A DNA stretch of 64,000 nt from an uncultured Erysipelotrichaceae bacterium (lineage in GTDB: Bacteria > Bacillota_I > Bacilli_A > RF39 > UBA660), in NCBI GenBank assembly GCA_902767245.1, contig CACXGO010000018.1:27708-91707 (forward strand), read 5' to 3'. The position numbers and the translations under genes are program-made. Of this stretch, positions 15,291-33,656 are shown piece by piece. Numbering within the stretch: position 1 is the first letter of the stretch; each line of letters opens with the position of its first letter. Below the pieces are notes generated by a model, which made no database searches, was not told the DNA's origin, and saw only the letters and a program-made list of their open reading frames with translations.

Positions 15291-15303
15291 TAGGGGGGAT
15301 AAA

Positions 15304-16068
15304 ATGCAAATATTTATTTATATTATGATATTTGTATTTGGACTTGTTTTAGGGTCGTTTTATAATGTTTTAGGCTATCGATTACCAAAAAAACAATCGA
15401 TAGTTTTTCCATCTTCACATTGTCCAAATTGTAAGCATAAATTACATTTTATAGATTTAATTCCAGTTTTATCTTATGTTTTATTAAAAGGAAAATGTAG
15501 ATATTGCAAAAAAAAGATTTCAATTATATATCCAATTATTGAACTATTAACAGCCATTTTATTTACACTATCTTATTATTTGTACGGATTTTCAATAAAT
15601 TTTGGTATTTCGATAGTATTTTCATCAGTTGCAGTTATTATAATTGCCTCAGATATAAGATACTTAGTAATTAATGATGAAATACTAGTTATTGGAGGTA
15701 TTTTGATTATATTACTTTTAGGCATCAATGGAGATTTTAAGAAAGTATTAGATTTAATTATAAATGGTGTTATTAGCTTCTTAATCATGTTTTTAATTAA
15801 AATTATTGCTGATTTTGTATTTAAAAGGGAAGCTATGGGTGGTGGAGATGTGAAGTTACTTACATTAATTGGAGCACTTGTAAGCTACCCAATGTCTATT
15901 ATGACGTTATGCTTATCTGCATTTATTGCTTTCCCATATGCTATTTTTGTTTATTTTAATAAAAATGATCATGTTCTTCCCTTAGGGCCATTTTTATGTA
16001 TTTCTGGATTGATTATCTATTTTTTAGGTATTAATTTTAATGATTTAATGCAAATAATGGCAAAATAA
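15304..16068 (+). CDS. Prepilin peptidase (A24 family; PilD/ComC)
   Basis: N-terminal CPNC...CRYC zinc motif, a polytopic membrane core, and catalytic-Asp contexts ASDIRYLVINDE and GGGDVKLL. Confidence 0.9.
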   Translation: MQIFIYIMIFVFGLVLGSFYNVLGYRLPKKQSIVFPSSHCPNCKHKLHFIDLIPVLSYVLLKGKCRYCKKKISIIYPIIELLTAILFTLSYYLYGFSINFGISIVFSSVAVIIIASDIRYLVINDEILVIGGILIILLLGINGDFKKVLDLIINGVISFLIMFLIKIIADFVFKREAMGGGDVKLLTLIGALVSYPMSIMTLCLSAFIAFPYAIFVYFNKNDHVLPLGPFLCISGLIIYFLGINFNDLMQIMAK

Positions 16069-16097
16069 AACTGAGTTTGTTTATTACTCAGTTTTTT
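16067..16097. terminator. Bidirectional terminator between the convergent prepilin peptidase and ATPase genes
   Basis: AAAA-CTGAGT-TTGTTTATT-ACTCAG-TTTTTT: an A-run and a T-run flank the hairpin. Confidence 0.7.
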
Positions 16098-17412
16098 AAA
16101 TGTCTAAAGTTTCAAAAGTATCATCTGGCTTTACATCTTCTAAGGTCGTTTTTTCTGCAGCATATTCAACTGGTTCATCAATTATTTCAGGGTTTGATCC
16201 TTCTGTTTCAATTTCATCCATTTGAATATCATCTGTTTCAATTAAACGCATAACTTCTTCCAAAGATGTTAATCCTTGTTCAACTTTCATAAGCCCATCT
16301 TGAAATAAAGTTATAGCATTTTCTTTATCATAAACTAAATTTCTTAATTCTTCTTTTGGCATTGAATCATTTATAGCATCTCTAATAGCTTCGTTAATTA
16401 ATAATACTTCTTGAATTGCAATACGGCCTAAATATCCATGGTTGCATTTATCACAACCATCAGAATAGAACATCTCATTTATATCCTTATTTAGATATTT
16501 TTTAAATATTTCTCTTTCATATTCTTTTGCAGGTCTTTTTTTCATACAATGTGGACATAACCTACGAGCAAGTCTCTGTGAGATAATTCCTGACAAAGCA
16601 GTTGCAAGTAAGTATCTTTCAACATCCATATCAAGTAAACGTTCAATTGTTGTTAAAGAGTTATTAGTATGAATAGTTGAAAGTACTAGGTGGCCAGTGA
16701 TTGAAGCACGAACTGCTATTTTTGCAGTTTCACTATCACGAATTTCTCCAATCATAATTATATCCGGGTCTTGACGCAAGATTGAACGAAGAGTACTTGC
16801 AAAAGTAAGACCGATCTCACTATTTACTTGAACCTGATTAACACCTGGCAAATCCATTTCAATTGGATCTTCAACAGTGATTAAGTTTACATCTTCATGA
16901 TTAATTCTTTGAAGTATTGAATAAACTGTTGTTGATTTACCAGTACCAGTAGCACCAGTAACCAAAATAATTCCACTAGGTTTATTAATCATCTCAATTA
17001 CTTTATCGTAATTTTGTTTATTAAAATCTAAATTTTCAATACCGTTCATATTCGCTTTATAATCCATAATACGAATAACAACTTTTTCACCTAAATTAGT
17101 TGGCAAACTTGAAACACGCATATCAAGTTCTTCAGATTCAATTGTGATTTTAATTGCTCCATCTTGTGGAAGTCGTGTTTCTGTTATATTCATACCACTT
17201 AAAATTTTAATTCTAGTGATCAAATTCTGCTTGTATTCATTTGGAACAAGTGCATAATCAATTAGTGTTCCATCGATACGAATTCGTATTTTTACAAAAC
17301 GATCGTATGGATCAAAATGAATATCACTCGCTTTACGAATAGATGCATCATATAATATATCATTAACAATTTCAACAATTGGAGTGTCAGAAAAATTATA
17401 TTTTTTTAACAT
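16096..17412 (-). CDS. Type IV pilus / Com assembly ATPase (GspE/PilB/ComGA family)
   Basis: Walker A GATGTGKST, Asp box, Walker B DPDIIMIGEIRD, His box TGHLVLSTIHTN, and tetracysteine CPHC...CDKC. The last ~45 aa form an unusual acidic tail. Confidence 0.9.
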   Translation of the reverse strand: MLKKYNFSDTPIVEIVNDILYDASIRKASDIHFDPYDRFVKIRIRIDGTLIDYALVPNEYKQNLITRIKILSGMNITETRLPQDGAIKITIESEELDMRVSSLPTNLGEKVVIRIMDYKANMNGIENLDFNKQNYDKVIEMINKPSGIILVTGATGTGKSTTVYSILQRINHEDVNLITVEDPIEMDLPGVNQVQVNSEIGLTFASTLRSILRQDPDIIMIGEIRDSETAKIAVRASITGHLVLSTIHTNNSLTTIERLLDMDVERYLLATALSGIISQRLARRLCPHCMKKRPAKEYEREIFKKYLNKDINEMFYSDGCDKCNHGYLGRIAIQEVLLINEAIRDAINDSMPKEELRNLVYDKENAITLFQDGLMKVEQGLTSLEEVMRLIETDDIQMDEIETEGSNPEIIDEPVEYAAEKTTLEDVKPDDTFETLDI

Positions 17413-17503
17413 TTTATCCCTCTTTATTCATTACCACTGGTAATTATTCTAAAAGTATTATATAATAATATTAGTCAAAATTCAATAATAAAGGGGAGCA
17501 ATT

Positions 17504-18064
17504 ATGAAAAAAAATGGTTTTATGGTTGTTGAGTGCGTAATTGCATCAGTTGTTGTCTTAACGGTTATAATAGTTTTATATACTCAAATAAAATCTGTAA
17601 TTAGAACTTATAATAAAAGTTATAATTATGACAATGTAAGCAGTCTTTATTCACTTTCAAATTTTCGCTCATTTGTATTAACTGGCGATAATTATGATAA
17701 ACTTGTTTCAAAATATCAAGAAAATAAAAATACTAATAGCTCTGTCTGTGGTAAAAATTATGTGTTTGTTTCTTGCAGTATTTTTAATGCAACTAATTAC
17801 TGTGACACACTTTTAAATGTAATGGGAATAACAACTACAAATATACGTCCACAGCAAATAATTTTTACTTCTTCAGATTTAAATGAATTAAAATCATGTG
17901 ACTTAAAACATGAAGCGGGGATGTTAAAAGATTCATTTGTTGATTACATTTTGTCATTAAATGTTGACAAAGAAGAAAATAAATATATGTTGATAGCAGA
18001 ATTTGACGATAGTACGCTTGCATCTATCAATCTATATCGAGCAAGCGAGGTGCAGAATGGTTAA
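17504..18064 (+). CDS. Prepilin-type (class III signal) minor pilin-like protein, 186 aa
   Basis: N-terminus MKKNG/FMVVECVIASVVVLTVIIVLY: Gly at -1, Glu at +5 and a hydrophobic helix. Confidence 0.7.
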   Translation: MKKNGFMVVECVIASVVVLTVIIVLYTQIKSVIRTYNKSYNYDNVSSLYSLSNFRSFVLTGDNYDKLVSKYQENKNTNSSVCGKNYVFVSCSIFNATNYCDTLLNVMGITTTNIRPQQIIFTSSDLNELKSCDLKHEAGMLKDSFVDYILSLNVDKEENKYMLIAEFDDSTLASINLYRASEVQNG

Positions 18065-19772
18065 ACTTAATAATAAAGGACTATCGGTTGTCGAATTAAT
18101 TGTTTCATTTGTACTTTGCATTTTAGTATTTATATTTGTAATTCAAGTTGTATCTGCTATTGAAGAACTTTATGTAAATTTGGGAATAAAGACAGAATTA
18201 TTAAATAAACAATCATTGATAAGTCAAAAATTAAATGAAAAATTCACAAATAAAAAAACAATTTTGATTAAAAATTGTGGAAATAATTGTCTTACTTTTT
18301 TTTATAAAGATAATACATCAGAAAAAATTAAAATAGATAAAAATGCTAATTCATTTATTATTGGAGATGACATTTATAATTTTAATGGTTTAGGTTTTGT
18401 TGATTCTTTAATAGTCACAACCAATAAAACACAAAATTATAATTATGAAATTTTAACGATAAATCTAAATGTAAAAAATACTATTTTCGATAGCGGAAAA
18501 TATATAATAAAATCACTATATCAATACAATAGCAATGAAGTAGTATATAGCGCATCAACAAGTAATAATGCAGAAATTTTCTTGTTAGGGCCTTCAACAA
18601 CTTATAAATTTGCTAATGATGTATTTATTGAACCAGGATGGATTGTTTATTATCCAAGTGGCAAAATAACAATAAATGGTACTGATGTTCAACCTTCAAA
18701 GATAAATTATGACGAAGATGGTAATGGTAGTATTACTTATCGAGGAATTGGTGAAGCTGCTGGTTCTGAAAAGGTAAGAGTTATTAGAAAAAATGAAACT
18801 GCTAAAGACCATATTGTAAGTTTATATAATGATCAAAAAGATGGCGTTTATTTATATGAGCAGTTTGGAAAATATATATACAAAGGTGCGAATGTAAAGA
18901 ACTATATATCAATTGGTAATAAGATGTTTAGGATAATATCTTTAGATATTCAATCACACTATAAATTGGATGAAGATGGGAATGTTATCACAATTGATGG
19001 TGAAAAACAAAAAGAAAATAAATATTTATTAAAAGTAGTAAGTACAGACTATGTTACTGATGAAAATAATAATAATTTGATTGCGTTTGATGATCAAACT
19101 TCAAATATTAATCAATCGCTTTGGATGGAAAAAGTATGCATTACCGAAACAAACTGTGAAATAAAGAAACAAACAATTAATAGGATTGTAAATGACATTT
19201 ATTTACAAGGATTGCTAAATACAGGTACAGGTAAAATGGCAATTAAAAATGGAATTTTTAATGTTGGCCTTGTAGACTTTAATATATATAAATTTGCAGC
19301 AACTAACATCGAAAACAATGTAGACTATACATACTCTGCTCAAACTATTTATGAATTAGAAGGAGCGGATGTGACTACAGAAACTGGTGTAATTTATCCT
19401 GGTAAATGGCATGGAAATTGCTTGGAAGATGTTTGTGGTCCAAATGCTGGCATATTAACTTTAACTGATGTTTTATTTACTAGTAATAATTCAAGATGCT
19501 TAGATGAATTACTTGTAAATAAAAGTGGTGCCAGCTGTTCAAAGGATAATTGGTTATGGTATCAAAATCCAAATAGTGAGGAAGTTTATCGCTTAATGAC
19601 TAGACTTGCACCTTTAGCTACATGGTTGCTTACAGAATACAATTTTCTTAGTTCGAATAAGATTTATGTACCATATAAAACAAGAGCCACATTATTTTTA
19701 GATGCGAATTTATATATTGCTGGTGATGGTTCATATGATAATCCATATACTTTATATTCTATAAATGTATAA
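18057..19772 (+). CDS. Large prepilin-type protein, 571 aa (candidate tip/minor pilin)
   Basis: ATG 18057 overlaps the upstream stop (AATGGTTAAA). N-terminus MVKLNNKG/LSVVELIVSFVLCILVFIFVI has Gly -1 and Glu +5. The rest is a long beta-rich, Cys-containing domain. Confidence 0.65.
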   Translation: MVKLNNKGLSVVELIVSFVLCILVFIFVIQVVSAIEELYVNLGIKTELLNKQSLISQKLNEKFTNKKTILIKNCGNNCLTFFYKDNTSEKIKIDKNANSFIIGDDIYNFNGLGFVDSLIVTTNKTQNYNYEILTINLNVKNTIFDSGKYIIKSLYQYNSNEVVYSASTSNNAEIFLLGPSTTYKFANDVFIEPGWIVYYPSGKITINGTDVQPSKINYDEDGNGSITYRGIGEAAGSEKVRVIRKNETAKDHIVSLYNDQKDGVYLYEQFGKYIYKGANVKNYISIGNKMFRIISLDIQSHYKLDEDGNVITIDGEKQKENKYLLKVVSTDYVTDENNNNLIAFDDQTSNINQSLWMEKVCITETNCEIKKQTINRIVNDIYLQGLLNTGTGKMAIKNGIFNVGLVDFNIYKFAATNIENNVDYTYSAQTIYELEGADVTTETGVIYPGKWHGNCLEDVCGPNAGILTLTDVLFTSNNSRCLDELLVNKSGASCSKDNWLWYQNPNSEEVYRLMTRLAPLATWLLTEYNFLSSNKIYVPYKTRATLFLDANLYIAGDGSYDNPYTLYSINV

Positions 19773-21707: not shown

Positions 21708-23231
21708 ATGGATTTAGAACAAATAAAAGAGTTTTTAAAAAAATACATTGTTTATATTTTAATTGGTTTAATACTAATTTTTGTAATACTTTTAATAATT
21801 CCAAGTAAAACTAACAATAGTTCTAAAGTACAAAAATTATATTTTTCTTTATATGGTGATGAAAAAATAACACTCGAAAAAGGTGAAACTTATAAAGAGC
21901 CAGGTTATAATGCATATGATACTGTTCAAGGGAATTTAAATAATAAAGTAATTATAACTGGCCAAGTTGATTCAAATACTGTTGGAGTTTATGAAATAAT
22001 ATATATGGTTACAAATGAAAAAGGTGAAACAAAGACTTTAAAAAGAATAGTAACAGTAGTTGATAAAAAAAATGAAGAAATAATTATAAATGCTACTATT
22101 TCACCAAGTGAGATAACTAACAAAGATGTTACTATTAATTTTTCGGTGACAAGTGGAAGCTATAAATTTATATTAGATCCAGATGGTAATATTAACTATT
22201 CAAACAATGTAAAATATATTGCCAAAGAAAATGGTGAATATGATTTTAGTGTAAAAAATCAAGATGGAACAATAGTTGAAAAAACTATTAAGATATCAAA
22301 TATTGATAAAATAAAACCAACTGGTACTTGTCAAGCTAATATAAAAAATACAAAAACAAATATAACAGTTCAGGCAAGTGATAATTTTGAAATAAAAAAA
22401 TATGAGTTTATACTTGATAATAATAAATATGAATCAAAATTAAATTCATATGAAATTTCAAAAGAAATAAAGAGTGCTAATGTAATTATTTATGATAAAG
22501 CTTCCAATAGTACAAATATCACTTGCAAAATAATTGATAACAGATCATCATCACCATCACCAACACCAACAATTCCAACAACTCCAATTAGTGGGTCTTA
22601 TTATAATGCCGATTTAAAGGCACATGGTCTTAAATATATTATTTATTATCCAGGTAATTTAAATCTTCAAGTTAAGAATCCATTAGTTGTTTATTTACAT
22701 GGAACAGGTGAGTGTAATAATGATATTAGTACTTTAGAAAATGTAACTTTTGTAAAAAACATGAAATCTAAATATTATACCGATGCTGTTTATTTAGCTC
22801 CACAATGTGTATGTAGCGGATACTGGGATTATTGCCTTGATAATTTAAAATCATTAATAGATAAAGTGGTAGTTGATTATAATATAGATACCAAAAGAAT
22901 ATCAATTACTGGAGCTAGTGCAGGTGGTATAGGTGTATATAGTATTATTTCTAAATATCCAAGATTTTTCTCCGCTGCTGTAGTTGTTGCTGGTCGTAAT
23001 AAAGACGGCATTATAAGCAATCTTATATATACTCCGATTCGACATTATCACGGAACACTTGATACTGCTGTATCTTATACAAATGCAAAAGAAAATGTTG
23101 AAGCAATAAAAAGAGCAGGTGGTAACATAGAATTTATATCATTACAAGGTAGGGGACATGATATAAGTGTAACAAATGACGTTTATAACCATACTAATGC
23201 TATTAGTTGGATGATATCTCAAAAGAGATAA
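21708..23231 (+). CDS. Membrane-anchored surface protein: Ig-like (DUF5011-type) domains, P/S/T linker and a C-terminal alpha/beta-hydrolase (esterase)
   Basis: N-terminal TM. The DUF5011-like segment is GYNAYDTVQGNLNNKVIITGQVDSNTVGVYEIIYMVTNEKGE and the linker is SSSPSPTPTIPTTP. The hydrolase has VVYLHGTGE, nucleophile elbow GASAGG and GRGHD. Confidence 0.65.
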   Translation: MDLEQIKEFLKKYIVYILIGLILIFVILLIIPSKTNNSSKVQKLYFSLYGDEKITLEKGETYKEPGYNAYDTVQGNLNNKVIITGQVDSNTVGVYEIIYMVTNEKGETKTLKRIVTVVDKKNEEIIINATISPSEITNKDVTINFSVTSGSYKFILDPDGNINYSNNVKYIAKENGEYDFSVKNQDGTIVEKTIKISNIDKIKPTGTCQANIKNTKTNITVQASDNFEIKKYEFILDNNKYESKLNSYEISKEIKSANVIIYDKASNSTNITCKIIDNRSSSPSPTPTIPTTPISGSYYNADLKAHGLKYIIYYPGNLNLQVKNPLVVYLHGTGECNNDISTLENVTFVKNMKSKYYTDAVYLAPQCVCSGYWDYCLDNLKSLIDKVVVDYNIDTKRISITGASAGGIGVYSIISKYPRFFSAAVVVAGRNKDGIISNLIYTPIRHYHGTLDTAVSYTNAKENVEAIKRAGGNIEFISLQGRGHDISVTNDVYNHTNAISWMISQKR

Positions 23232-23233
23232 AA

Positions 23234-23258
23234 AAGAAAATGTAAATTTTCTTTTTTT
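23234..23258 (+). terminator. Rho-independent terminator after the esterase gene
   Basis: AAGAAAAT-GTAA-ATTTTCTT followed by TTTTT. Confidence 0.65.
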
Positions 23259-23327
23259 GTTTATATAAATATTTCTTTTTTGATTACTTTATGATAATAT
23301 ATATTTAGAAAATAAGGTGAGTGGCTT

Positions 23328-25262
23328 ATGCGTAAAAATGGCTTTACTTTAGTAGAAATGTTAACGGTTATAATAATATTAGTCATAATAAGTTTGCTTG
23401 CTATTTTTTCAATAACTGCGACTGTTAAAAGCTCAGCGGAAAAATTATATAAAGTTCAGATAGATAGCATTATTGATGCAAGTAGAACATATGCCATAAA
23501 AAATAATTCTATTTTGGCTGACAGTACTGAGATAACAATATGTGATTTAAAAAGATCAAGTTTACTTGATAATGATCTTAAAAATCCTAAAACTGAAGAA
23601 CCATTTGATAATGATTTAATAATAAAAATTATTCGTGATAGAGATGGTGAATTTAAGTTTCAATTTGATGGCATTAAAAAAATGGAAAATTATAATTGCG
23701 ATTTAGATGTTTCTGTTAGTTTAAAAGGGAATTCCCCATTATATGTAAGCCTTGGTTCAATATATGTAGAGCAAGGTATAAATGTAAAAAGAAAAGATTT
23801 AAATTGTACTTATGGTCATGGAACTGCAAGTAATACAGCCTGTTATTATGATTATGTTAAAAGTGGTTCATATAGTTCTGCTTTAAATGGAAATAAATAT
23901 AATAAAGTTGGCACATTTGAAGAAAGTTATAATGTTACTAGTGATTCATTTACGACCTCTATTACAAGAACAATAATAGTTCAAGATAAATCTGCACCTG
24001 CTATTTCAGTTAATTACAAAGGAACCGTTTACAATAATCCTTTTACTGCGAGAATTATAGAGTCTGATTCACCAGCAACTTTTTCTTGCATTGCAGTGGA
24101 TGATTATGATGGTAATGTTGCTTGTAACATTTTGAAAAATGATTATAATAACACTAAAAATCCAGGAACATATGAAATCATTTATAAAGCAAGTGATAAA
24201 AACAATAATGTGGCAACTTTTACAGTTAATGTAACAGTTTTACCAAAAAACAAAAATTTAATTGTTGGATTAAATGTAGACAATGTAAATTGGACAAATC
24301 AGAGCGTTAATTTTAAAATTTATCCATTATACGATAAAAATGGTTGTTCAAAATATAATTATGATTTTGGAAATGGAATTTGGGTTGAAAATGATACCAG
24401 TGAAATATTGAGAAATGGGACTTATAATGTCGGTATTAAATGTGAAAATGGTAATGTTGAAGACTACTTAACATATAGAGTTACTAACATAGATAAAGAT
24501 CCGCCAGTTTTTTCGCAAAGCGAAATAGGAATTAATGTTCAACCAAAAGTGTCTGGTAAAAAAGTTATTATAAATACAACAAATAACATAAAGTATTACA
24601 TTGCAAATGACACAGTTGTCTTATCAGATTCAACTGGAGCCTATGATAGTGGAACGGGTGTTGCTGGTTATAATATTTATATCAATGATGAGATTAATTC
24701 TATAAATGAAATTAGTGCTGAAGGAGTATATGAAATAAAAATTAATGCTTATGATTATGCTTCGAATCAAAGTGATCCTATACTCGCAGGATATGTTGTA
24801 ATAACAAAAAGTATACCAACATGTACATTTTCAAATAGTACAACCAATGCAATATTTAATAATAATGGTGATGTTACATACAATAACGGAATTTATAAGT
24901 TGACTAATAATAATTATCCAATAACAATTTCTTACAGATTTTCGTGCTCTTATGAATACTTCGAAAATGCTGATGTTTTAACAAGACCAAAGCTAAAAAA
25001 ACTTGCAAATTTTTATTTAAGAGAGCAATCGGGTATAAATGGGCAGTATAATCTTGTTGAGTTAGGATCATGGGTATTAGAAGGTGCTCCTGTTTGTGAA
25101 AATAGTAAATGTGTTAAAACTTATAATAATATGATAACACTTAGAATTAATGGTTTAGATGATATAGCATATTTAAATTTAGAAAAAAATTCATTTTGTG
25201 ATGATTTAGATAACTGTAATAATCGTAAAGTTCAATCGCAGGCGCTTGCAAAAGCAAATTAA
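23328..25262 (+). CDS. Modular type IV pilin, 644 aa: a canonical pilin module plus a ~530-aa Ig-like extension
   Basis: The prepilin signal MRKNG/FTLVEMLTVIIILVIISLLA is textbook. Residues ~1-115 look like a complete ComGC/PilE-size pilin (ITICDLKRSSLLDNDLKNPKTEEPF). This is followed by a DUF5011-like segment (AVDDYDGNVACNILKNDYNNTKNPGTYEIIYKASDKNNN) and further beta-rich, Cys-containing domains. Confidence 0.8.
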   Translation: MRKNGFTLVEMLTVIIILVIISLLAIFSITATVKSSAEKLYKVQIDSIIDASRTYAIKNNSILADSTEITICDLKRSSLLDNDLKNPKTEEPFDNDLIIKIIRDRDGEFKFQFDGIKKMENYNCDLDVSVSLKGNSPLYVSLGSIYVEQGINVKRKDLNCTYGHGTASNTACYYDYVKSGSYSSALNGNKYNKVGTFEESYNVTSDSFTTSITRTIIVQDKSAPAISVNYKGTVYNNPFTARIIESDSPATFSCIAVDDYDGNVACNILKNDYNNTKNPGTYEIIYKASDKNNNVATFTVNVTVLPKNKNLIVGLNVDNVNWTNQSVNFKIYPLYDKNGCSKYNYDFGNGIWVENDTSEILRNGTYNVGIKCENGNVEDYLTYRVTNIDKDPPVFSQSEIGINVQPKVSGKKVIINTTNNIKYYIANDTVVLSDSTGAYDSGTGVAGYNIYINDEINSINEISAEGVYEIKINAYDYASNQSDPILAGYVVITKSIPTCTFSNSTTNAIFNNNGDVTYNNGIYKLTNNNYPITISYRFSCSYEYFENADVLTRPKLKKLANFYLREQSGINGQYNLVELGSWVLEGAPVCENSKCVKTYNNMITLRINGLDDIAYLNLEKNSFCDDLDNCNNRKVQSQALAKAN

Positions 25263-25280
25263 TAGAAAGGAATGATATTT

Positions 25281-26744
25281 ATGCGCAAATTTTTGACATT
25301 ATTAGTATTACTAGTGGCGTTTTTACCAAAAATTTCAGCAACTTCATTAACCACTGAAACTAATGCCTTTAATAATCGAATCAGCACGGAAACTATTGAT
25401 TTAAAGGCTGCATTAAATAGTTTTAATAATTATTTAACAAACAATTCAAATAAAATATCTAATGCGTTAGATATCAATTTGATTAAAACTATCGCTACAA
25501 ACTTAAAAAATAATAATTATACTGCAGCTTTTTCAGCTCTAGAAAATGCTGTAAATGATGATAATTTAACCAATTTAAATCTTTCATCAAAAATTAATAA
25601 TTATTTGAATTTAAAATCTGATTTAATTAGTTTTGTAAATACAAACAAAGCAAAATTAGATGTTGAAACAGGAACTGATGAAGGACTTGAATGTTCACTT
25701 TCATTACTTGACCAAATAAAACAATCATTTAATGAAGTAAAGCCAATTTTCTCAACAACAATTGAAAAGCTAGGAAAAACATTTTCAACGGTTATTAAAA
25801 ATCATATTGCAGAAAAGAAAAATATTAATAATAGTGAACTTAATAACATTATAGATGAATATAATGAGTTAGCTTCATTGTTAGCAAATTTGGTAGAAAA
25901 ATATTACAATTCTTTAGATGATTACAAATCAACTTTTAAAGTTATAAGTGGAAGCGAAAAATTATTTGAATCGTTAATTAGAAAGAAATTTAAAACAGAT
26001 TTAGATAATTTGCTTGAAAATGCTGAAGCTACTTTAAAAGCCCCAGTTAATGAGTTTATTAATAAAAGATGGGATATTTTAGAAAATGATGTAACTGAAC
26101 TTATCGAAAGTGATAAAACAATACCAGAAAAAAATGAAAATATATATTCAAAAATAGATAAAGTTGAAGCAGTAAATGAAAAATTCATTAATGCAATCAA
26201 TAATATTATTGGTAAATTAGATATTAATTCAATTAAAGATAAATTAAATAAAGTATTAAATCGAGGCAAAAATGAATTTGCTCATGCAATTGAATATTTG
26301 GAAGCTCACCTTATAATAGGTGAATATGATATTGAATTGGTTGATGGTCATGATGCAAAAGTTACCATTGATCGTGCTAAAGAATTAATTATTTTGGATC
26401 GCTTGTTTGGAATTCAAGAATTTAAGAATCAAATTAGATTAGCAAATAATTTAGGAACATTAAAGTTTAATCTTGGTACTTATACTTATGTTGCTAATAA
26501 ATCAACAGTATCGGTAGAAGATAATAATGAAACGAAAAAAGAATACAAGATAATTGTTAAAGGTGATGTAAATAATAATGGAAATGTTACAATATCCGAC
26601 GCAGTTGAAGCAGCATATTATTCGTTAAATGATCGTGATCTTGATGAGTATCAAGTACTTGCAGCTGATATGAATAATAACAATACTGTAACTATTTCTG
26701 ATGTATATCTAATTGCTTTAAGAGCTTTGGAAGGAGGTAATTAA
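25281..26744 (+). CDS. Secreted helical protein with a C-terminal type-I-like dockerin
   Basis: Signal peptide MRKFLTLLVLLVAFLPKISA and ~400 aa of helix-prone sequence. The C-terminal duplicated Ca-loop/helix pair is GDVNNNGNVTISDAVEAAYY...AADMNNNNTVTISDVYLIALRAL. An alternative start is at 25272. Confidence 0.6.
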   Translation: MRKFLTLLVLLVAFLPKISATSLTTETNAFNNRISTETIDLKAALNSFNNYLTNNSNKISNALDINLIKTIATNLKNNNYTAAFSALENAVNDDNLTNLNLSSKINNYLNLKSDLISFVNTNKAKLDVETGTDEGLECSLSLLDQIKQSFNEVKPIFSTTIEKLGKTFSTVIKNHIAEKKNINNSELNNIIDEYNELASLLANLVEKYYNSLDDYKSTFKVISGSEKLFESLIRKKFKTDLDNLLENAEATLKAPVNEFINKRWDILENDVTELIESDKTIPEKNENIYSKIDKVEAVNEKFINAINNIIGKLDINSIKDKLNKVLNRGKNEFAHAIEYLEAHLIIGEYDIELVDGHDAKVTIDRAKELIILDRLFGIQEFKNQIRLANNLGTLKFNLGTYTYVANKSTVSVEDNNETKKEYKIIVKGDVNNNGNVTISDAVEAAYYSLNDRDLDEYQVLAADMNNNNTVTISDVYLIALRALEGGN

Positions 26745-26745
26745 A

Positions 26746-27873
26746 ATGAAGAAATTTCTTTTACTATTTGTAAGTTTGTTTATGCCATTTTTGGTTAATG
26801 CGGCCAGTGTTAGTATGACTGGAACCACTACTATTTCGCCAGGTGAAACAGTTGCACTTCCAATTATTGTATCTGATAGTAATGAAATACATGGTGTACA
26901 AATGGTTATGACATTAAGTGGATCAGATTTTGACTTATTAATTGATAAAACTGTTTCATCTTATCAAATTCTTGTAAAGAAGAAATTAAGTAATGGATAT
27001 GGTTTATCTATAATTAGTACAAGTAAAAAAATTGCAAATAAAGGAACACTTGCTAAAATATATATTAAAGCTAATTCATCAGCAACACCTGGGAACAAAG
27101 CAACTTTAACTTTAAAGGATATAATTTTTGCAACAGGAGCTGAACTTAATGATACAAAAGCAAGTAATTATTCAAAAACGCTTACAGTAGGTGCAGTAAA
27201 ATCAACAAACAATTATTTAAGTTCATTAAAAGTTGAAGGATATAATATCTCATTCAATAAAAACACAACTGCTTATACAATAAATGGTGCAACAAGCGGA
27301 AGTGCTCTTAAGGTAACAGCAAATGCTGAAGATGAAAAAGCAAATGTTAAAATTAATTCACCAAAATTAGTTTCTGGAAAAAACACAATTACAGTAGTTG
27401 TTACCGCTGAATCTGGAGCTAAAAGAACATACACAATTACTGTAAATGTCCCAACCGAAACAGTTGATAAGAGTGCAATAGATTTAAAAACATTAGAAGT
27501 TAAAGGCTATGATATTAAATTTGATCCTCAAAATACAGATTATGTCTTAAATGTAAACAATGATGTTGAGAAAGTAGAAATTAATTCCACATTAAAAGAT
27601 GAAACATCATCTAAAACCATGAATGGACCAGATAAATTGCAAGTTGGTGAGAACTTGTATACAATAACTGTAACTGATAAGTCTGGGAATAAAAAGGTTT
27701 ATAAGTTGACAATTAACCGCTTGGCAAAAGAAAAAGAATGTGAAGTATGTAAAGTATGTGACGAGTGCGAAAGCGGAAGTTCAATTTGGAAATTTTTAGC
27801 AATAGCCCTTGTAATTGTTACGTTAGCTGAAACAATTTATATGGTATCAATGCGTGACAAAAAGCAATTTTAA
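26746..27873 (+). CDS. Membrane-anchored cohesin protein: cohesin-like domain, two cadherin-like beta-sandwich domains, a Cys cluster and a C-terminal TM
   Basis: Signal peptide. Cohesin-like pattern SVSMTGTTTISPGETVALPIIVSDSNEIHGVQMVMTL...GTLAKIYIKANSSATPGNKATLTLKDIIFA. There are two copies of the LSSLKVEGYNISFNKNTTAYTI...GKNTITVVVTAESGAKRTYTITV type. Then ECEVCKVCDECESG, then the TM FLAIALVIVTLAETIYMV and tail RDKKQF. Confidence 0.6.
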   Translation: MKKFLLLFVSLFMPFLVNAASVSMTGTTTISPGETVALPIIVSDSNEIHGVQMVMTLSGSDFDLLIDKTVSSYQILVKKKLSNGYGLSIISTSKKIANKGTLAKIYIKANSSATPGNKATLTLKDIIFATGAELNDTKASNYSKTLTVGAVKSTNNYLSSLKVEGYNISFNKNTTAYTINGATSGSALKVTANAEDEKANVKINSPKLVSGKNTITVVVTAESGAKRTYTITVNVPTETVDKSAIDLKTLEVKGYDIKFDPQNTDYVLNVNNDVEKVEINSTLKDETSSKTMNGPDKLQVGENLYTITVTDKSGNKKVYKLTINRLAKEKECEVCKVCDECESGSSIWKFLAIALVIVTLAETIYMVSMRDKKQF

Positions 27874-27877
27874 TTAA

Positions 27878-27907
27878 AAGATAAACATTTGTTTATCTTT
27901 TTTTTTA
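27878..27907 (+). terminator. Strong rho-independent terminator ending the pilin-dockerin-cohesin unit
   Basis: AAAGATAAAC-ATT-GTTTATCTTT followed by a 7-nt T-run. Confidence 0.8.
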
Positions 27908-29316: not shown

Positions 29317-30080
29317 TAGATATCCACTCACACATCTTATATGGAATTGATGATGGAGCTAAAAACATTGATGACAGTGTTAGTCTAATTAATAGTGCTA
29401 TTAAAAACAATGTTAAGAAAATTATTCTTACACCGCATTATATTGTAGAATCAAATTCAATAACTCCAAATAAGACCAAAAAAGAAATATTGAATAAAAT
29501 AAAAAAACAAGTTTCTTCAGAAGTTGAACTTTATTTGGGTAATGAAATATATATGGATGATGATATTGCTTCATTAATTGATGCTAATAAAATTATGCCT
29601 TTAGCAAATAGCAAATATTTATTAATTGAGCTTCCAATATATAATGAATATCCAAACTTAGAAAACAAATTGTTCTCTTTAAGAAATTTGGGATACAAAA
29701 TTATAATTGCTCATCCAGAAAGATATTACTATTTTAAAAATGATTTTAGTAAATTACTTAAGCTTTGTAAACAAGGCATTTACTTTCAAGGTAATTATAT
29801 GTCACTTTATGATATATATGGTAAAAGTACAAAAAAATTATTTTTAAAAATATTAAAACATCATTGCTATAGTTTTATGGCGAGTGATATTCATATGCCT
29901 AGTCAAAAATATTATGATAAAATTAGCGATGCCAAAGCTAAAATAGCAAAAATTACAAATAAATCTTATTGTGATGATATATTTTATAACAATGCGGATA
30001 AAATAATAAAGAACGAAGAAGTAGAAAATAGTTATAAAGAAAAAATATCAATTTTTGATAGAATAAGAGGGAATAAATGA
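29313..30080 (+). CDS. PHP-family protein-tyrosine phosphatase (CpsB/YwqE type)
   Basis: N-terminal MIDIHSHILYGIDDGA, then TPH, AHPERY and SDIH metal-binding motifs. Confidence 0.85.
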   Translation: MIDIHSHILYGIDDGAKNIDDSVSLINSAIKNNVKKIILTPHYIVESNSITPNKTKKEILNKIKKQVSSEVELYLGNEIYMDDDIASLIDANKIMPLANSKYLLIELPIYNEYPNLENKLFSLRNLGYKIIIAHPERYYYFKNDFSKLLKLCKQGIYFQGNYMSLYDIYGKSTKKLFLKILKHHCYSFMASDIHMPSQKYYDKISDAKAKIAKITNKSYCDDIFYNNADKIIKNEEVENSYKEKISIFDRIRGNK

Positions 30081-31219
30081 AAAAGAAGTTAATAATATTA
30101 TTCTTGTTTCTAATATTTCCTTTTTTTGTATCTGCATATACAAAAGAGGATATAATTAAACTTGTAGACAATCAAAAAACATGTGATCAAGAAACAGAAA
30201 ACATGTATTCAAAATATTTTAATATATATTCGAGATTGTTAAAAAAGAAAGATGTATCTGAAGGTGACTTGAATCAAATTCATACAAATTTAACTAAAGC
30301 CTTGGTAATTGCAAATAAATATAACTTATGCAGTATTGATGATCTTGATAATATACCAAAGAAAGAGAAAAGCGAATTATATAATTACTTGTATGATAGT
30401 TATAAATTAATTTTAAAATCAAAAAATCTGGATGATACAGAAACAAATGTTATTTATAATGGCGATGGTACAATAGATATATATGAAAATGGTGAACACT
30501 TAGAACAAATCAAAACAGCAAAAGATACATTTAACTATGTTGGATTAAGCAAATACTTTGTTTATTTAAAATACCTTTTACCATTTAGTTTAATCGTTAT
30601 TTTTATATTTGTGATGAAAACAAGAAAAAAGATTTTTATTAATGAAATACTTATAATTTTACTAGTGATTGATATTATTCTAACTTTAGTATATTTTAAA
30701 GCAGGAAATAAAATATATGATGCTTATAATCTTATAAAATCTATGAGTTATATTGAAAATAAAGAAGTAACTAAAATTGAAGTCAAAAATAAAAAAATTA
30801 TTAAATATCCCAGTTTTGGTTCAAAATATGGTGTATTAAAAATAGATAATCTTGGAATCAACTTACCAATTTTTTACGGTGACTCCAAAGAAATATTAAA
30901 AAAAGGCATTGGACATAGTCAATCATTTCCAGGTTTTGGAGGGACAACTATATTAAGTGGCCATAATTCAAAGATTTTTTTAAATAGTTTAAAAAATATT
31001 AAGATTTCTAGTTTAATTGAAGTTGAGACTGATTATGGAGCTTTTATATATAAAGTAAGAAAAATTGAAATATTAAATACTGATCAATATTCAAAATTAG
31101 AAAAAGGAAAAAATGAAATTATTTTGTATACATGTTATCCATTTGATGAAATAGTTTATTCAAATCAGAGATTTGTTGTTTATGCTAGTTTAATAGAATC
31201 GAAGTGGTTGAATGGTTAA
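30077..31219 (+). CDS. Sortase-domain protein with an atypical ~230-aa N-terminal extension (signal peptide, extracytoplasmic domain, two TMs)
   Basis: The C-terminal ~145 aa carry the sortase His (TILSGHNS), Cys (ILYTCYPF) and Arg (NQRFVVYA) contexts. ATGA overlap with the phosphatase gene. Confidence 0.7.
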   Translation: MKKKLIILFLFLIFPFFVSAYTKEDIIKLVDNQKTCDQETENMYSKYFNIYSRLLKKKDVSEGDLNQIHTNLTKALVIANKYNLCSIDDLDNIPKKEKSELYNYLYDSYKLILKSKNLDDTETNVIYNGDGTIDIYENGEHLEQIKTAKDTFNYVGLSKYFVYLKYLLPFSLIVIFIFVMKTRKKIFINEILIILLVIDIILTLVYFKAGNKIYDAYNLIKSMSYIENKEVTKIEVKNKKIIKYPSFGSKYGVLKIDNLGINLPIFYGDSKEILKKGIGHSQSFPGFGGTTILSGHNSKIFLNSLKNIKISSLIEVETDYGAFIYKVRKIEILNTDQYSKLEKGKNEIILYTCYPFDEIVYSNQRFVVYASLIESKWLNG

Positions 31220-32010: not shown

Positions 32011-32445
32011 ATGAATTTGATTAATTTTTTAGCCGTAGGAGTAAAATGTGGCGATACTGAAATTGGTGGGATGATTGTAGGAATTATTGGGACTATTTAT
32101 AATGGAATTAAGATAGGGGTGCCAATAATCTTAATAATTGTTGGTATGGTTGGAATGGGGAAGGCCATAGCCCAACAAAAAGAGGATGAAATAAAGAAAG
32201 CCCAAAGCACATTAATTAAACAAGCAGTAGCAGCAGTAATAGTATTTTTAATGTTTCAATTAGTACAACTTGGAATGAGTGCTTTAAATGTTAAAAACGA
32301 TTCAAATTGGCAATGTGTTAAAATGATATTAATTCCACCAAAAGATGGTGACGACTGTAAAATGGATGACGGTAATGGTGGCGGATGGAGAATTCTCAAT
32401 GAAAATACCAATGATGCAATGTGGGAATGCCAAAGTAGGGGATAA
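32011..32445 (+). CDS. Two-TM hairpin small protein, paralog 1 of 4 (TrbC/VirB2-like topology)
   Basis: GGAGG RBS. Conserved core IYNGIKIGVPIILIIVGMVGMGKAIAQQKEDEIKKAQSTLIKQAVAAVIVFLMFQLVQL. The C-tail is variable and contains WQC...C...WEC. Confidence 0.65.
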   Translation: MNLINFLAVGVKCGDTEIGGMIVGIIGTIYNGIKIGVPIILIIVGMVGMGKAIAQQKEDEIKKAQSTLIKQAVAAVIVFLMFQLVQLGMSALNVKNDSNWQCVKMILIPPKDGDDCKMDDGNGGGWRILNENTNDAMWECQSRG

Positions 32446-32451
32446 AATTCA

Positions 32452-32886
32452 ATGACTATGATTAATTTCTTAGCGACAAAAGGAATAATTTGTGCAGGAA
32501 TCAGATTAGAAGGAGATATTGTCGGAATTATTCGAACCGTTTATAATGGAATAAAAATAGGAGTTCCTTTAATCTTGATTTTTGTTGGAATGTTTGGCAT
32601 GGCCAAAGCAATCACTATGCAAAAGGAAGATGAAATAAAAAAAGCTCAGAATTTACTTGTTAGACAAGCAGTAGCAGCAGTAATAGTATTTTTAATGTTT
32701 CAATTAGTACAACTTGCAATGAGTGTAATTAAAGTAAAAAATTCATCAAATTGGTCTTGCGTAAAAGCTGTTTTAGTTGAACCAGATTCTAAAACAAAAT
32801 GTTATACAGATGATGGAAAAGAAGCTTATTGGGGCTCTGACCACTTAACTGATTCATATTGGCAATGTGATGGAGCGGCTGGTTAA
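32452..32886 (+). CDS. Two-TM hairpin small protein, paralog 2 of 4
   Basis: Same core (VYNGIKIGVPLILIFVGMFGMAKAITMQKEDEIKKAQNLLVRQAVAAVIVFLMFQLVQL). It shares a 53-nt identical run with paralog 1 and long identical runs with paralog 3. Confidence 0.65.
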   Translation: MTMINFLATKGIICAGIRLEGDIVGIIRTVYNGIKIGVPLILIFVGMFGMAKAITMQKEDEIKKAQNLLVRQAVAAVIVFLMFQLVQLAMSVIKVKNSSNWSCVKAVLVEPDSKTKCYTDDGKEAYWGSDHLTDSYWQCDGAAG

Positions 32887-32918
32887 AAACTTATTATAAA
32901 TAAAATTGAGGTGATATA

Positions 32919-33263
32919 ATGTTTTTCTTAGATGAAATGTGTGGTGCATGTGCATCCGCTGGTCTTGGGAATATTCCTAATCAGGTAGTTAATATAATAC
33001 ATATTGTTTTTGTAGCAATAAAAATAGGAGTTCCTTTGATTCTAATTTTTGTTGGAATGTTTGACATGGCTCGCGCAATCACTCTACAAAAGGAAGATGA
33101 AATAAAAAAAGCTCAAAATTTATTGGTAAGAAAAGCAGTAGCAGCAGCTTTAGTGTTTTTAATGCTTTCTTTAGTCAGCACATTATTTAGTGTTGTTGGC
33201 GGTGAAGGATCAGAGAATATTTGGAGTTGCGTTAATGCACTTTTAAATGGTATATGTTCATAA
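32919..33263 (+). CDS. Two-TM hairpin small protein, paralog 3 of 4
   Basis: GAGGTGA RBS. Core AIKIGVPLILIFVGMFDMARAITLQKEDEIKKAQNLLVRKAVAAALVFLM. The N-tail has CGAC and the C-tail has WSC...ICS. Confidence 0.65.
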   Translation: MFFLDEMCGACASAGLGNIPNQVVNIIHIVFVAIKIGVPLILIFVGMFDMARAITLQKEDEIKKAQNLLVRKAVAAALVFLMLSLVSTLFSVVGGEGSENIWSCVNALLNGICS

Positions 33264-33293
33264 AAAGTATCAATGATACTTTTTGTTTTTTTT
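33263..33293 (+). terminator. Rho-independent terminator after paralog 3
   Basis: AAAAGTATC-AAT-GATACTTTT followed by a T-rich run. An extended -10 TGTTATAAT (TATAAT at 33309-33314) follows and could drive paralog 4 separately. Confidence 0.7.
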
Positions 33294-33332
33294 AAAATAA
33301 TTTTATGTTATAATGATTTTGGTGACTAATCT

Positions 33333-33656
33333 ATGTTTTTGGATATTATGTGTGCTGGAACTGAACTTCCAGATTATGTTGGATATTATGTATCATTAAT
33401 ATATTTTGCAATACGTATTTGTGTTCCAATTTTATTAATTATTGTTGGAATGATTGATATGGGAAGAGCAATTGTCTCTAAAAAAGAAGAAGATGTTAAA
33501 AAAGCTCAAGGACTATTATTAAAAAAAGTAGTTCTTGGAATAATAGTATTCTTACTTCCTTACTTTGTTGAATTAGTTATTAAGATATTTACTAAAGATA
33601 ATGAATTAGTTGATTGTATTAAAAAACTTATAGATTATAGAACAAATTTATTTTAG
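33333..33656 (+). CDS. Two-TM hairpin small protein, paralog 4 of 4 (most divergent)
   Basis: Core AIRICVPILLIIVGMIDMGRAIVSKKEEDVKKAQGLLLKKVVLGIIVFLLPYFVELV. It has its own promoter-like box and terminator. Confidence 0.6.
   Translation: MFLDIMCAGTELPDYVGYYVSLIYFAIRICVPILLIIVGMIDMGRAIVSKKEEDVKKAQGLLLKKVVLGIIVFLLPYFVELVIKIFTKDNELVDCIKKLIDYRTNLF

Follow-up and report, generated by a model that had tools for sequence, protein, structure and literature searches.

The DNA analysed here is a stretch of 64,000 nucleotides (nt) from an uncultured Erysipelotrichaceae bacterium (contig CACXGO010000018.1), which is called the window and in whose numbering all positions are given. It contains an operon of three open reading frames (ORFs) on the same strand, which encode a modular type IV pilin (G1), a secreted dockerin-bearing cargo protein (G2), and a membrane-anchored monovalent cohesin protein (G3). 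The operon is probably best explained as a dedicated, non-cellulosomal display pair, consisting of G2 and G3, which is one instance of a two-gene cassette and which shares a promoter with the pilin G1. Cohesin–dockerin binding is usually regarded as cellulosome machinery. Because the adjacency of the dockerin and cohesin genes is conserved in 57 of 76 loci and because the two modules diverge together, it is very likely that G2 and G3 are a cognate pair for surface display outside any cellulosome.

Domain identities of G2 and G3

G2 (25281–26744, + strand, 487 amino acids (aa); alternative start at 25272, 490 aa) begins with a Sec signal peptide (residues 1–20), which is followed by a helical domain (residues 23–342, nt 25347–26306, + strand) and, after a linker/beta region, by a C-terminal dockerin module (residues 427–478, nt 26559–26714, + strand). 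The helical domain is taken from a structure prediction, in which residues 23–342 are helical with a predicted local distance difference test (pLDDT) score of about 90. The dockerin module matches the Dockerin_1 profile (PF00404) at 26.7 bits, where the cut-off is 22.9, and precomputed PF00404 matches are present on 8 of 11 G2 homologs. It consists of two Ca-loop/helix repeats, DVNNNGNVTISD and DMNNNNTVTISD, which are conserved in 12 orthologs and which show the F-hand pattern, with loop residues D1, N/D3, N/D5, and D12, a helix after each loop, and a spacing of about 35 residues. The recognition position 10 is identical in both repeats (I/I or V/V) in all 12 orthologs, as would be expected if both repeats fit one cohesin, that is, for dual-mode binding. 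The best sequence match of the dockerin in the Protein Data Bank (PDB) is the ScaB dockerin of Acetivibrio cellulolyticus (4uyq_B, E = 0.008).

The helical domain was found in only 8 clusters by an exhaustive HMMER search of 1.84 billion representatives, where the full-length members have about 490 aa, and all 8 clusters appear to come from the same clade. A Foldseek search of the G2 model against the PDB gave only designed helical repeats and TPR-like proteins with TM scores of at most 0.3, and the search against viral structures gave only tape-measure-like noise. A pore former of the ClyA/Hbl type was considered, and none was present among the top 50 matches listed; any functional assignment of the domain was rejected, as no meaningful Foldseek match was obtained. 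By analogy with the adhesin-like cargo of sister cassettes, the domain may act in adhesion or another surface interaction, which is proposed with low confidence.

G3 (26746–27873, + strand, 375 aa) consists of a signal peptide (residues 1–19), a cohesin domain (residues ~20–150, nt 26803–27195, + strand; PF00963), two Cadherin-like beta-sandwich domains that are proposed to form a stalk (residues ~152–236 and ~246–325, nt 27199–27720, + strand; PF12733), a CxxCxxCxxC cluster read from the sequence (C332–C341, nt 27739–27768, + strand), and a C-terminal transmembrane (TM) helix, I347–M369, with the basic cytoplasmic tail RDKKQF (nt 27784–27870, + strand). The Cadherin-like domains match PF12733 at 60.6 bits in two stretches (E = 2e-16). 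The isolated N-terminal domain (residues 19–150) matches Cohesin PF00963 at 27.1 bits (cut-off 24.1, E = 5.5e-6), and when the N-terminal domains of the family were scanned alone, 11 of 13 matched the same profile. A cohesin profile of the G3 family, which was built only from members without prior cohesin annotation, was compared with the PDB; cohesins make up 20 of its 23 matches, including the top 20, and 4uyp_A is among them (E = 0.001). The G2 dockerin and the G3-family cohesin profile, in other words, match the two partner chains of one solved complex, 4uyp/4uyq.

More distant full-length homologs of G3 carry precomputed PF00963 matches, and the precomputed annotation of nearly all G3 homologs is Cadherin-like only. 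Since the G3 cohesin passes its cut-off only as an isolated domain and the homologs are annotated as Cadherin-like only, it is probable that public databases under-annotate the cohesins of this family. G3, which combines a cohesin with a C-terminal TM helix and lacks both an SLH domain and an LPXTG motif, is in this respect a TM-anchored monovalent cohesin protein; most of its homologs have a C-terminal hydrophobic stretch as well. Fourteen close orthologs of G3 have conserved its CxxCxxCxxC cluster, TM helix, and RDKKQF tail. The cysteine cluster, which lies on the extracellular side beside the membrane, is invariant in these 14 and absent from distant cohesin–Cadherin–TM homologs; metal binding, oligomerisation, and a redox function are possible roles.

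These results bear out the domain assignments of an earlier sequence-only reading of this DNA. It had described the second gene as a secreted helical protein of about 490 aa ending in a duplicated dockerin, which agrees with the signal peptide, the predicted helices, and the Dockerin_1 profile check that it had proposed. Its N-terminal cohesin in G3 holds for the isolated domain, though the full-length scan is silent, and its two cadherin-like domains, cysteine cluster, and C-terminal TM helix with a basic tail are confirmed by Pfam and by ortholog conservation.

As a separate observation, relatives of the G3 Cadherin-like domains are also present in giant surface proteins (2200–4800 aa) at five loci, L062 and L071 (metagenome-assembled genomes (MAGs) of Saccharibacteria / Nanosyncoccaceae, in the candidate phyla radiation), L068, L073, and L082. 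These giant proteins have no cohesin, and no dockerin gene is adjacent to them.

The two-gene cassette and the co-divergence of its modules

A scan of species-representative genomes gave 80 loci with G3 relatives, labelled L001, L002, and so on, which according to their record titles come from MAGs of Erysipelotrichaceae, other Bacilli, 'Mollicutes'/'Tenericutes', Oscillospiraceae, Acutalibacteraceae, and Lachnospiraceae (Roseburia, Agathobacter). Hidden Markov models (HMMs) were made from the G2 dockerin and G3 cohesin families, and the ORFs of the 80 loci were searched with them. Of these loci, 76 have an upstream gene, and in 57 of the 76, the gene immediately upstream of the G3 homolog is a dockerin gene; the baseline of dockerin matches is 71 of 2210 ORFs (3.2%). 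The gaps between the dockerin and cohesin genes are mostly −20 to +30 nt, and the dockerin gene is always first in order. The pair in the window has the same arrangement, with the dockerin gene on the same strand and a 1-nt gap before the cohesin–Cadherin–TM gene. In 10 sampled upstream partners, Dockerin_1 is above the Pfam cut-off in 8 and below it in a ninth, and Pfam confirmed Cohesin in 7 of 10 divergent anchors that were missed by the narrow HMM.

The sampled cargo includes two S8 subtilases (Peptidase_S8), a Peptidase_C1 protein with a lectin-like domain, a glucosaminidase, BspA-type leucine-rich repeats (LRR_5), and Big_2, Big_3, and F5_F8 domains, and the length of the cargo proteins ranges from less than 200 to more than 2000 aa. 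Several MAGs have two loci each (L015/L043, L014/L056, L017/L039, L018/L032, and L035/L050). Judged from gene order and domain content, the G2–G3 pair is to be read as one instance of a two-gene cassette that is common in gut and rumen Firmicutes. The cassette seems to provide gut Firmicutes with a general means of surface display in which each cargo has its own anchor. The dedicated cohesin–dockerin pair proposed in the sequence-only reading thus stands as far as the two genes are adjacent and look cognate, in view of the 57 of 76 loci and the co-divergence; it does not stand as a one-off arrangement, as the cassette is common.

The pairwise divergence of the modules was compared over 58 adjacent dockerin/cohesin pairs. 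Divergence of the dockerin correlates with that of the cohesin at r(Doc,Coh) = 0.80, which exceeds the value for the Cadherin-like domains that share the anchor protein with the cohesin, r(Doc,Cad) = 0.68. The partial r(Doc,Coh) is 0.59, a value that was reached by none of 2000 label permutations and from which shared phylogeny is only partly removed. When only the deeply diverged pairs are considered, the two values are 0.26 for r(Doc,Coh) and 0.00 for r(Doc,Cad). As a sign of cognate pairing, this co-divergence is suggestive rather than proof.

The following mechanism is proposed. G3 would be exported via Sec and retained in the membrane by its C-terminal helix, and its two Cadherin-like domains would hold the N-terminal cohesin outward. 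Secreted G2 would then be captured by this cohesin through its C-terminal dockerin, whose two Ca-loop repeats have a symmetric look, and the capture would keep the clade-specific helical domain of G2 at the cell surface. The binding of the dockerin to the cohesin, presumably Ca2+-dependent, is suggested by the conserved adjacency and the co-divergence. In the clade of the window, the cassette and G1 would be transcribed from a single promoter; G1 would presumably be cleaved by the prepilin peptidase and assembled by PilB/PilC, which are encoded 6–10 kb upstream, and it would probably display its beta-sandwich stalk and Cys-rich end module on the pilus.

The pilin gene, the operon, and the neighbouring genes

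G1 (23328–25262, + strand, 644 aa) has a class III signal peptide, MRKNG|FTLVEM, which continues into a hydrophobic stretch (MRKNG|FTLVEMLTVIIILVIISLLAIF). Its basic leader ends in Gly, with Phe (F/M in the motif) at +1, Glu at +5, and about 20 hydrophobic residues, as in prepilins, and the motif is invariant in 22 orthologs. G1 matches Pfam N_methyl (PF07963) at 21.5 bits (cut-off 21.2) and TIGR02532 at 24.3 bits (cut-off 16.3), and a Pfam scan found Bact_surface_Ig-like repeats (PF16403). The AlphaFold2 (AF2) model, which was made with 22 orthologs and has a pLDDT of 82, consists of an alpha1 helix (residues 9–58), a small beta head (strands 66–118, to about residue 125; pLDDT of about 80–87 for helix and head), and a chain of beta-sandwich (Ig-like) modules after residue ~125; a Cys-rich module forms the C-terminus (residues ~497–644). 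The Foldseek matches of this model are tandem Ig/cadherin arrays, S-layer proteins, and adhesin stalks. G1 has the composition of a modular pilin, with an N-terminal pilin module joined to domains that are not pilus-specific, and no cohesin or dockerin module was found in it.

The three genes are tightly spaced. The gap between G1 and G2 is 9 or 18 nt, depending on the G2 start chosen, and the start codon of G3 lies 1 nt past the G2 stop; the ATG at 25281 is favoured as the G2 start because of an AGGA ribosome-binding site just before 25272. The operon is bracketed by two terminator-like hairpins on the + strand, each followed by a T-run. The hairpin at 23230–23257, a 12-bp A/T stem that ends the upstream esterase gene, has 12 perfect pairs and a folding energy (dG) of −8.7 kcal/mol (z −4.25), and none of 200 shuffles folds as well. 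The hairpin at 27876–27901 (27876–27907 with its T-run), which ends the operon, has an 11-bp stem and a dG of −9.5 kcal/mol (z −3.9 relative to shuffles). A consensus terminator scan of the window, whose GC content is about 26% throughout, detected neither of these flanking hairpins because the scan needs three G–C pairs. A hairpin with a T-run also lies directly 3' of the G3 ortholog in L002, L004, L005, and L006, where its sequence differs in each locus and its position is constant.

A candidate extended −10 promoter element, TGaTAATAT, is located at 23292–23300 (+ strand) and is followed by a conserved leader and by the ribosome-binding site of G1, AAGGTG, at 23314–23319 (+ strand). The pattern TGnTAAnAT precedes the pilin gene without variation in the window, L002, L004, L005, and L006, whose encoded proteins are only 35–49% identical, and the leader TTAGAAnATAAGG (TTAGAATAGG) 3' of the element is common to all five loci. 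No hairpin is present in the gap between the pilin and dockerin genes (9–53 nt) in the loci examined. Since the extended −10 element and the 3' hairpins are conserved and the gap contains no hairpin, the pilin, dockerin, and cohesin genes of this clade form one unit with a promoter and a terminator of its own. In two relatives, the G1–G2 gap contains the sequence TGTATAAT, which is a perfect extended −10 element (L002, 6474–6507; L004, 8448–8500), and this suggests a putative internal promoter for the dockerin–cohesin pair in some relatives; the 9/18-nt gap of the window has no extended −10 element of this type. An antisense ORF (25922–26269, minus strand, 115 aa) was judged to be probably spurious; it lies wholly inside the conserved coding region of G2.

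Orthologs of G1, G2, and G3 are found together on at least 10 independent contigs, with identities of 35–49% for G1, 40–56% for G2, and 46–64% for G3. The gene order pilin, dockerin, cohesin is kept in L002, L004, L005, and L006; among the triad loci, the upstream neighbours differ (three different contexts) and the downstream block is conserved. Of about 75 distant loci, only 5 (L015, L016, L030, L043, and L051) have a true prepilin gene less than 10 kb from the cassette, which is about the chance level for 20-kb windows; a 518-aa regex match in L015 was discarded as a false positive. In the next-closest G3 clades, no pilin gene was found beside the cassette, and the dockerin–cohesin pair itself is present. 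Since prepilin genes elsewhere are at the chance level and G1 has no cohesin or dockerin module, the pilin link is an operon fusion specific to one clade. Such a fusion argues for co-regulation of the pilin with the pair, rather than for contact between them.

The sequence-only reading had described a modular pilin followed by two closely spaced genes between terminators, and this description is upheld by the profile matches and the AF2 model of G1, by the ORF coordinates (spacings of about 9–18 nt and 1 nt), and by the folding of both hairpins relative to shuffles. It had also made its interpretation depend on support from domain profiles and on conservation of the triad; since the profiles pass and the neighbourhood survey found the triad in L002, L004, L005, and L006 and on at least 10 contigs, the interpretation is not overturned. 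The proposed genetic coupling of the pilin to the cohesin–dockerin pair is correct for the close relatives, in which the operon is conserved, and fails for the next-closest clades and about 70 distant loci, in which the pilin is missing. The further step to a pilus-associated display or adhesion system goes beyond the data and is speculation, as co-transcription indicates co-regulation only.

Machinery for a type IV filament is encoded upstream of the operon at 13239–19772. It comprises a PilC-like platform protein (T2SSF, 13239–15290), a prepilin peptidase (Peptidase_A24, 15304–16068), a PilB/GspE-type ATPase (16096–17412, minus strand), and two prepilin-like genes at 17504–18064 (KNGFMVVE..., 186 aa) and ~18051–19772 (NKGLSVVE..., about 570 aa). 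As the prepilin peptidase, the ATPase, and the platform protein are all present in the window, the machinery that G1 needs is therefore available. ComEA and ComEC are also encoded upstream of the operon, and no small ComGC-like major pilin gene was seen within the 64-kb window. The two prepilin-like genes adjoin pilB and have no family matches besides the motif. The platform protein has 683 aa, and its T2SSF domains begin only near residue 347; its N-terminus consists of a TM segment and a low-complexity extension of about 300 aa rich in N, E, and K, which is unusual for PilC/GspF.

Directly 5' of the operon, the gene at 21708–23231 codes for a protein that is anchored at its N-terminus and combines Bact_surface_Ig-like domains with a C-terminal esterase (polyhydroxybutyrate (PHB)-depolymerase / S9-like). 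It is set off from G1 by the hairpin at 23230–23257, and its position is not kept in relatives. Downstream of G3 are genes for CpsC, CpsD, and CpsB homologs, a sortase, four small paralogous membrane proteins, and RecD2. The sortase (30077–31219, 380 aa), which follows the CpsB-like gene, has a signal peptide and internal TM segments before the catalytic domain; its N-terminal domain of about 150 aa has no family match, and its position is kept in all close relatives. The four tandem paralogs at 32011–33656 (144, 144, 114, and 107 aa) have a core resembling IKIGVPLILIFVGM...KEDEIKKAQ and match no Pfam or NCBIfam family. They look like pilins of the VirB2/TrbC type, and no match was found; the array is kept downstream of the sortase gene in relatives (L001, 13348–14668; L005).

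Alternative explanations and known systems

Several observations weigh against the reading of G2 and G3 as a dedicated display pair. Cohesin was not reported in the full-length Pfam scan of G3 at E values of up to 1, and a phmmer search of full-length G3 against PDB sequences returned nothing relevant, so that the G3 cohesin must be considered divergent. The linker/beta region and the dockerin of G2 are poorly modelled, with a pLDDT below 50, and no relatives of the G2 helical domain were detected outside the clade by sequence or structure. The mirror-tree type of statistic used for the co-divergence, as stated above, is not free of shared phylogeny. The analysis of the locus covers 64 kb of one genome, and further dockerin or cohesin genes may lie elsewhere.

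The adjacency of the two genes could also reflect co-regulation only, in which case the G3 cohesin would bind other dockerins, on its own or on other cells, and the G2 dockerin would bind another cohesin or would merely be a Ca-binding stabiliser. Published surveys list TM-anchored single cohesins with unassigned partners (PMC11557425), cross-species cohesin–dockerin recognition is documented according to a citation in PMC13487519, and cross-binding is conceivable because several MAGs carry more than one cassette. This explanation is nevertheless judged very unlikely, since a dockerin gene followed by a cohesin gene, with a gap close to zero, is found in 57 of 76 loci, dockerin divergence is tied more tightly to the neighbouring cohesin than to the Cadherin-like domains of that anchor protein, and ClcC/ClcD, the only adjacent single pair that has been tested, does bind (PMC13487519). 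A minimal cellulosome- or amylosome-like complex for carbohydrate degradation is suggested by the fact that cohesin and dockerin are the defining modules of cellulosomes and that a minimal cellulase pair is encoded by adjacent genes in Cellulosilyticum lentocellum (PMC13487519). It is extremely improbable for this operon: G1, G2, and G3 contain no glycoside hydrolase (GH) or carbohydrate-binding module (CBM), there is a single cohesin only, proteases, a peptidoglycan hydrolase, and proteins of the LRR or Ig-like type account for most of the cargo sampled from sister cassettes, and the fold of G2 matches no enzyme. The sequence-only reading was right in this respect, as it had denied that the system is a cellulosome.

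The dedicated pair could, in addition, be part of a larger assembly, in which G1, G2, and G3 form one physical apparatus and, for example, the helical domain of G2 docked on G3 binds the distal module of G1, so that pili are tethered or parked at the surface or cargo is handed to the pilus. The three genes have one promoter and one terminator with gaps of 9–53 nt in all five loci examined, G1 remains with G2–G3 through three changes of upstream context and on the independent contigs (at least 10) that carry all three orthologs, and the G1 family and the G2 helical domain are confined to the same clade. Such a complex is unlikely, however, as the cassette is pilin-free nearly everywhere else, with a prepilin gene within 10 kb in the roughly chance number of 5 of about 75 distant loci and none in the next-closest clades; moreover, G1 lacks a cohesin or dockerin module, the TGTATAAT element in the G1–G2 gap of L002 and L004 could drive G2–G3 separately, and co-transcription indicates co-regulation, not contact. 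It is likewise quite unlikely that the pilus adhesin and the display pair act as one apparatus in which G2 held by G3 is the cell-surface partner of the distal module of G1. In that case, G2 could be the site where the pilus docks or is retained, or a cell–cell bridge could form when the pilus meets G2 on another cell, and this would be the first link of type IV pili with a cohesin–dockerin assembly. That the cassette serves general surface display is more likely than such an apparatus and stands independently of it.

Literature text searches, whose coverage did not extend to a 2009 survey of non-cellulosomal modules, gave no description of the dockerin-cargo / cohesin–Cadherin–TM cassette. 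That survey (Peer et al. 2009, FEMS Microbiol Lett 291:1) reportedly describes cohesin and dockerin modules on proteins other than glycanases in organisms that are not cellulose degraders. The same searches found no cohesin–dockerin genes linked to a type IV pilin gene, and the sole joint treatment was a proteome study of R. flavefaciens (PMC3672088), which is said to treat cellulosome components and type IV pili together. The novelty of the cassette and of the pilin linkage is provisional because the 2009 survey lies outside the comparison. The locus and the survey of its relatives suggest that cohesin–dockerin recognition can be used by uncultured Firmicutes of the gut and rumen as a simple device of two genes, present in many versions, each of which may pin a single secreted protein to the membrane, and they supply a candidate partner for the TM-anchored single-cohesin proteins listed in surveys. 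The cassettes constitute a set of natural cohesin–dockerin pairs, which may be mutually specific and could serve the engineering of surface display in gut commensals. The clade-specific operon with a large modular type IV pilin is a lead on the coordination of pili and surface adhesion systems in monoderm bacteria.

G3 is most closely comparable to the TM-anchored monovalent ('nonSLH-anchoring') cohesin scaffoldins, which are an already recognised category with unassigned partners; examples are WP_216523161.1 of Lachnoclostridium sp. MSJ-17 and proteins of Ruminococcus difficilis / R. sp. HUN007 (PMC11557425, PMC13463774). Like G3, these scaffoldins have one cohesin and a C-terminal membrane helix, are presumed to hold dockerin proteins at the membrane, and occur in hosts that are not necessarily cellulolytic. 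G3 differs from them in that its partner gene lies directly upstream, with an adjacency conserved across many families, whereas the surveys list no partners, and in its Cadherin-like stalk, its relative-less helical cargo, and the type IV pilin in its operon.

ClcC and ClcD of Cellulosilyticum lentocellum resemble G2–G3 in that a single cohesin and a single dockerin are encoded by adjacent genes in a predicted two-gene operon, and the two proteins form a heterodimer experimentally (PMC13487519). In contrast to the present pair, ClcC is a CBM3-X2-cohesin protein without a membrane anchor and ClcD is a GH5 cellulase; the system is targeted to cellulose, and no pilin is involved. The complex of the ScaB dockerin and the ScaC cohesin of Acetivibrio cellulolyticus (4UYP/4UYQ) contains the best match of the G2 dockerin among solved structures and, in the partner chain, a match of the G3-family cohesin profile, and the ScaB dockerin has two near-identical repeats, as does that of G2, which is consistent with dual-mode binding. 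These matches are weak (E = 0.008 and 0.001); there, scaffoldins are joined in a true cellulosome, which is attached to the cell via SLH domains, whereas G3 would be attached via its membrane helix.

For G1, the closest comparison is with modular type IV pilins such as PilB and PilC of Streptococcus sanguinis (PMC8179133, PMC9934059), in which functional modules are likewise added to a small pilin module with a class III signal peptide. These proteins have a proposed position at the pilus tip and a role in adhesion in monoderm bacteria (PMC8179133, PMC9934059), and modular pilins are widespread (PMC8179133). G1 differs from them in its long beta-sandwich chain and Cys-rich end module, where PilB and PilC have a vWA or a lectin module, and in the location of its gene, which stands apart from the machinery genes and in an operon with a cohesin–dockerin pair.

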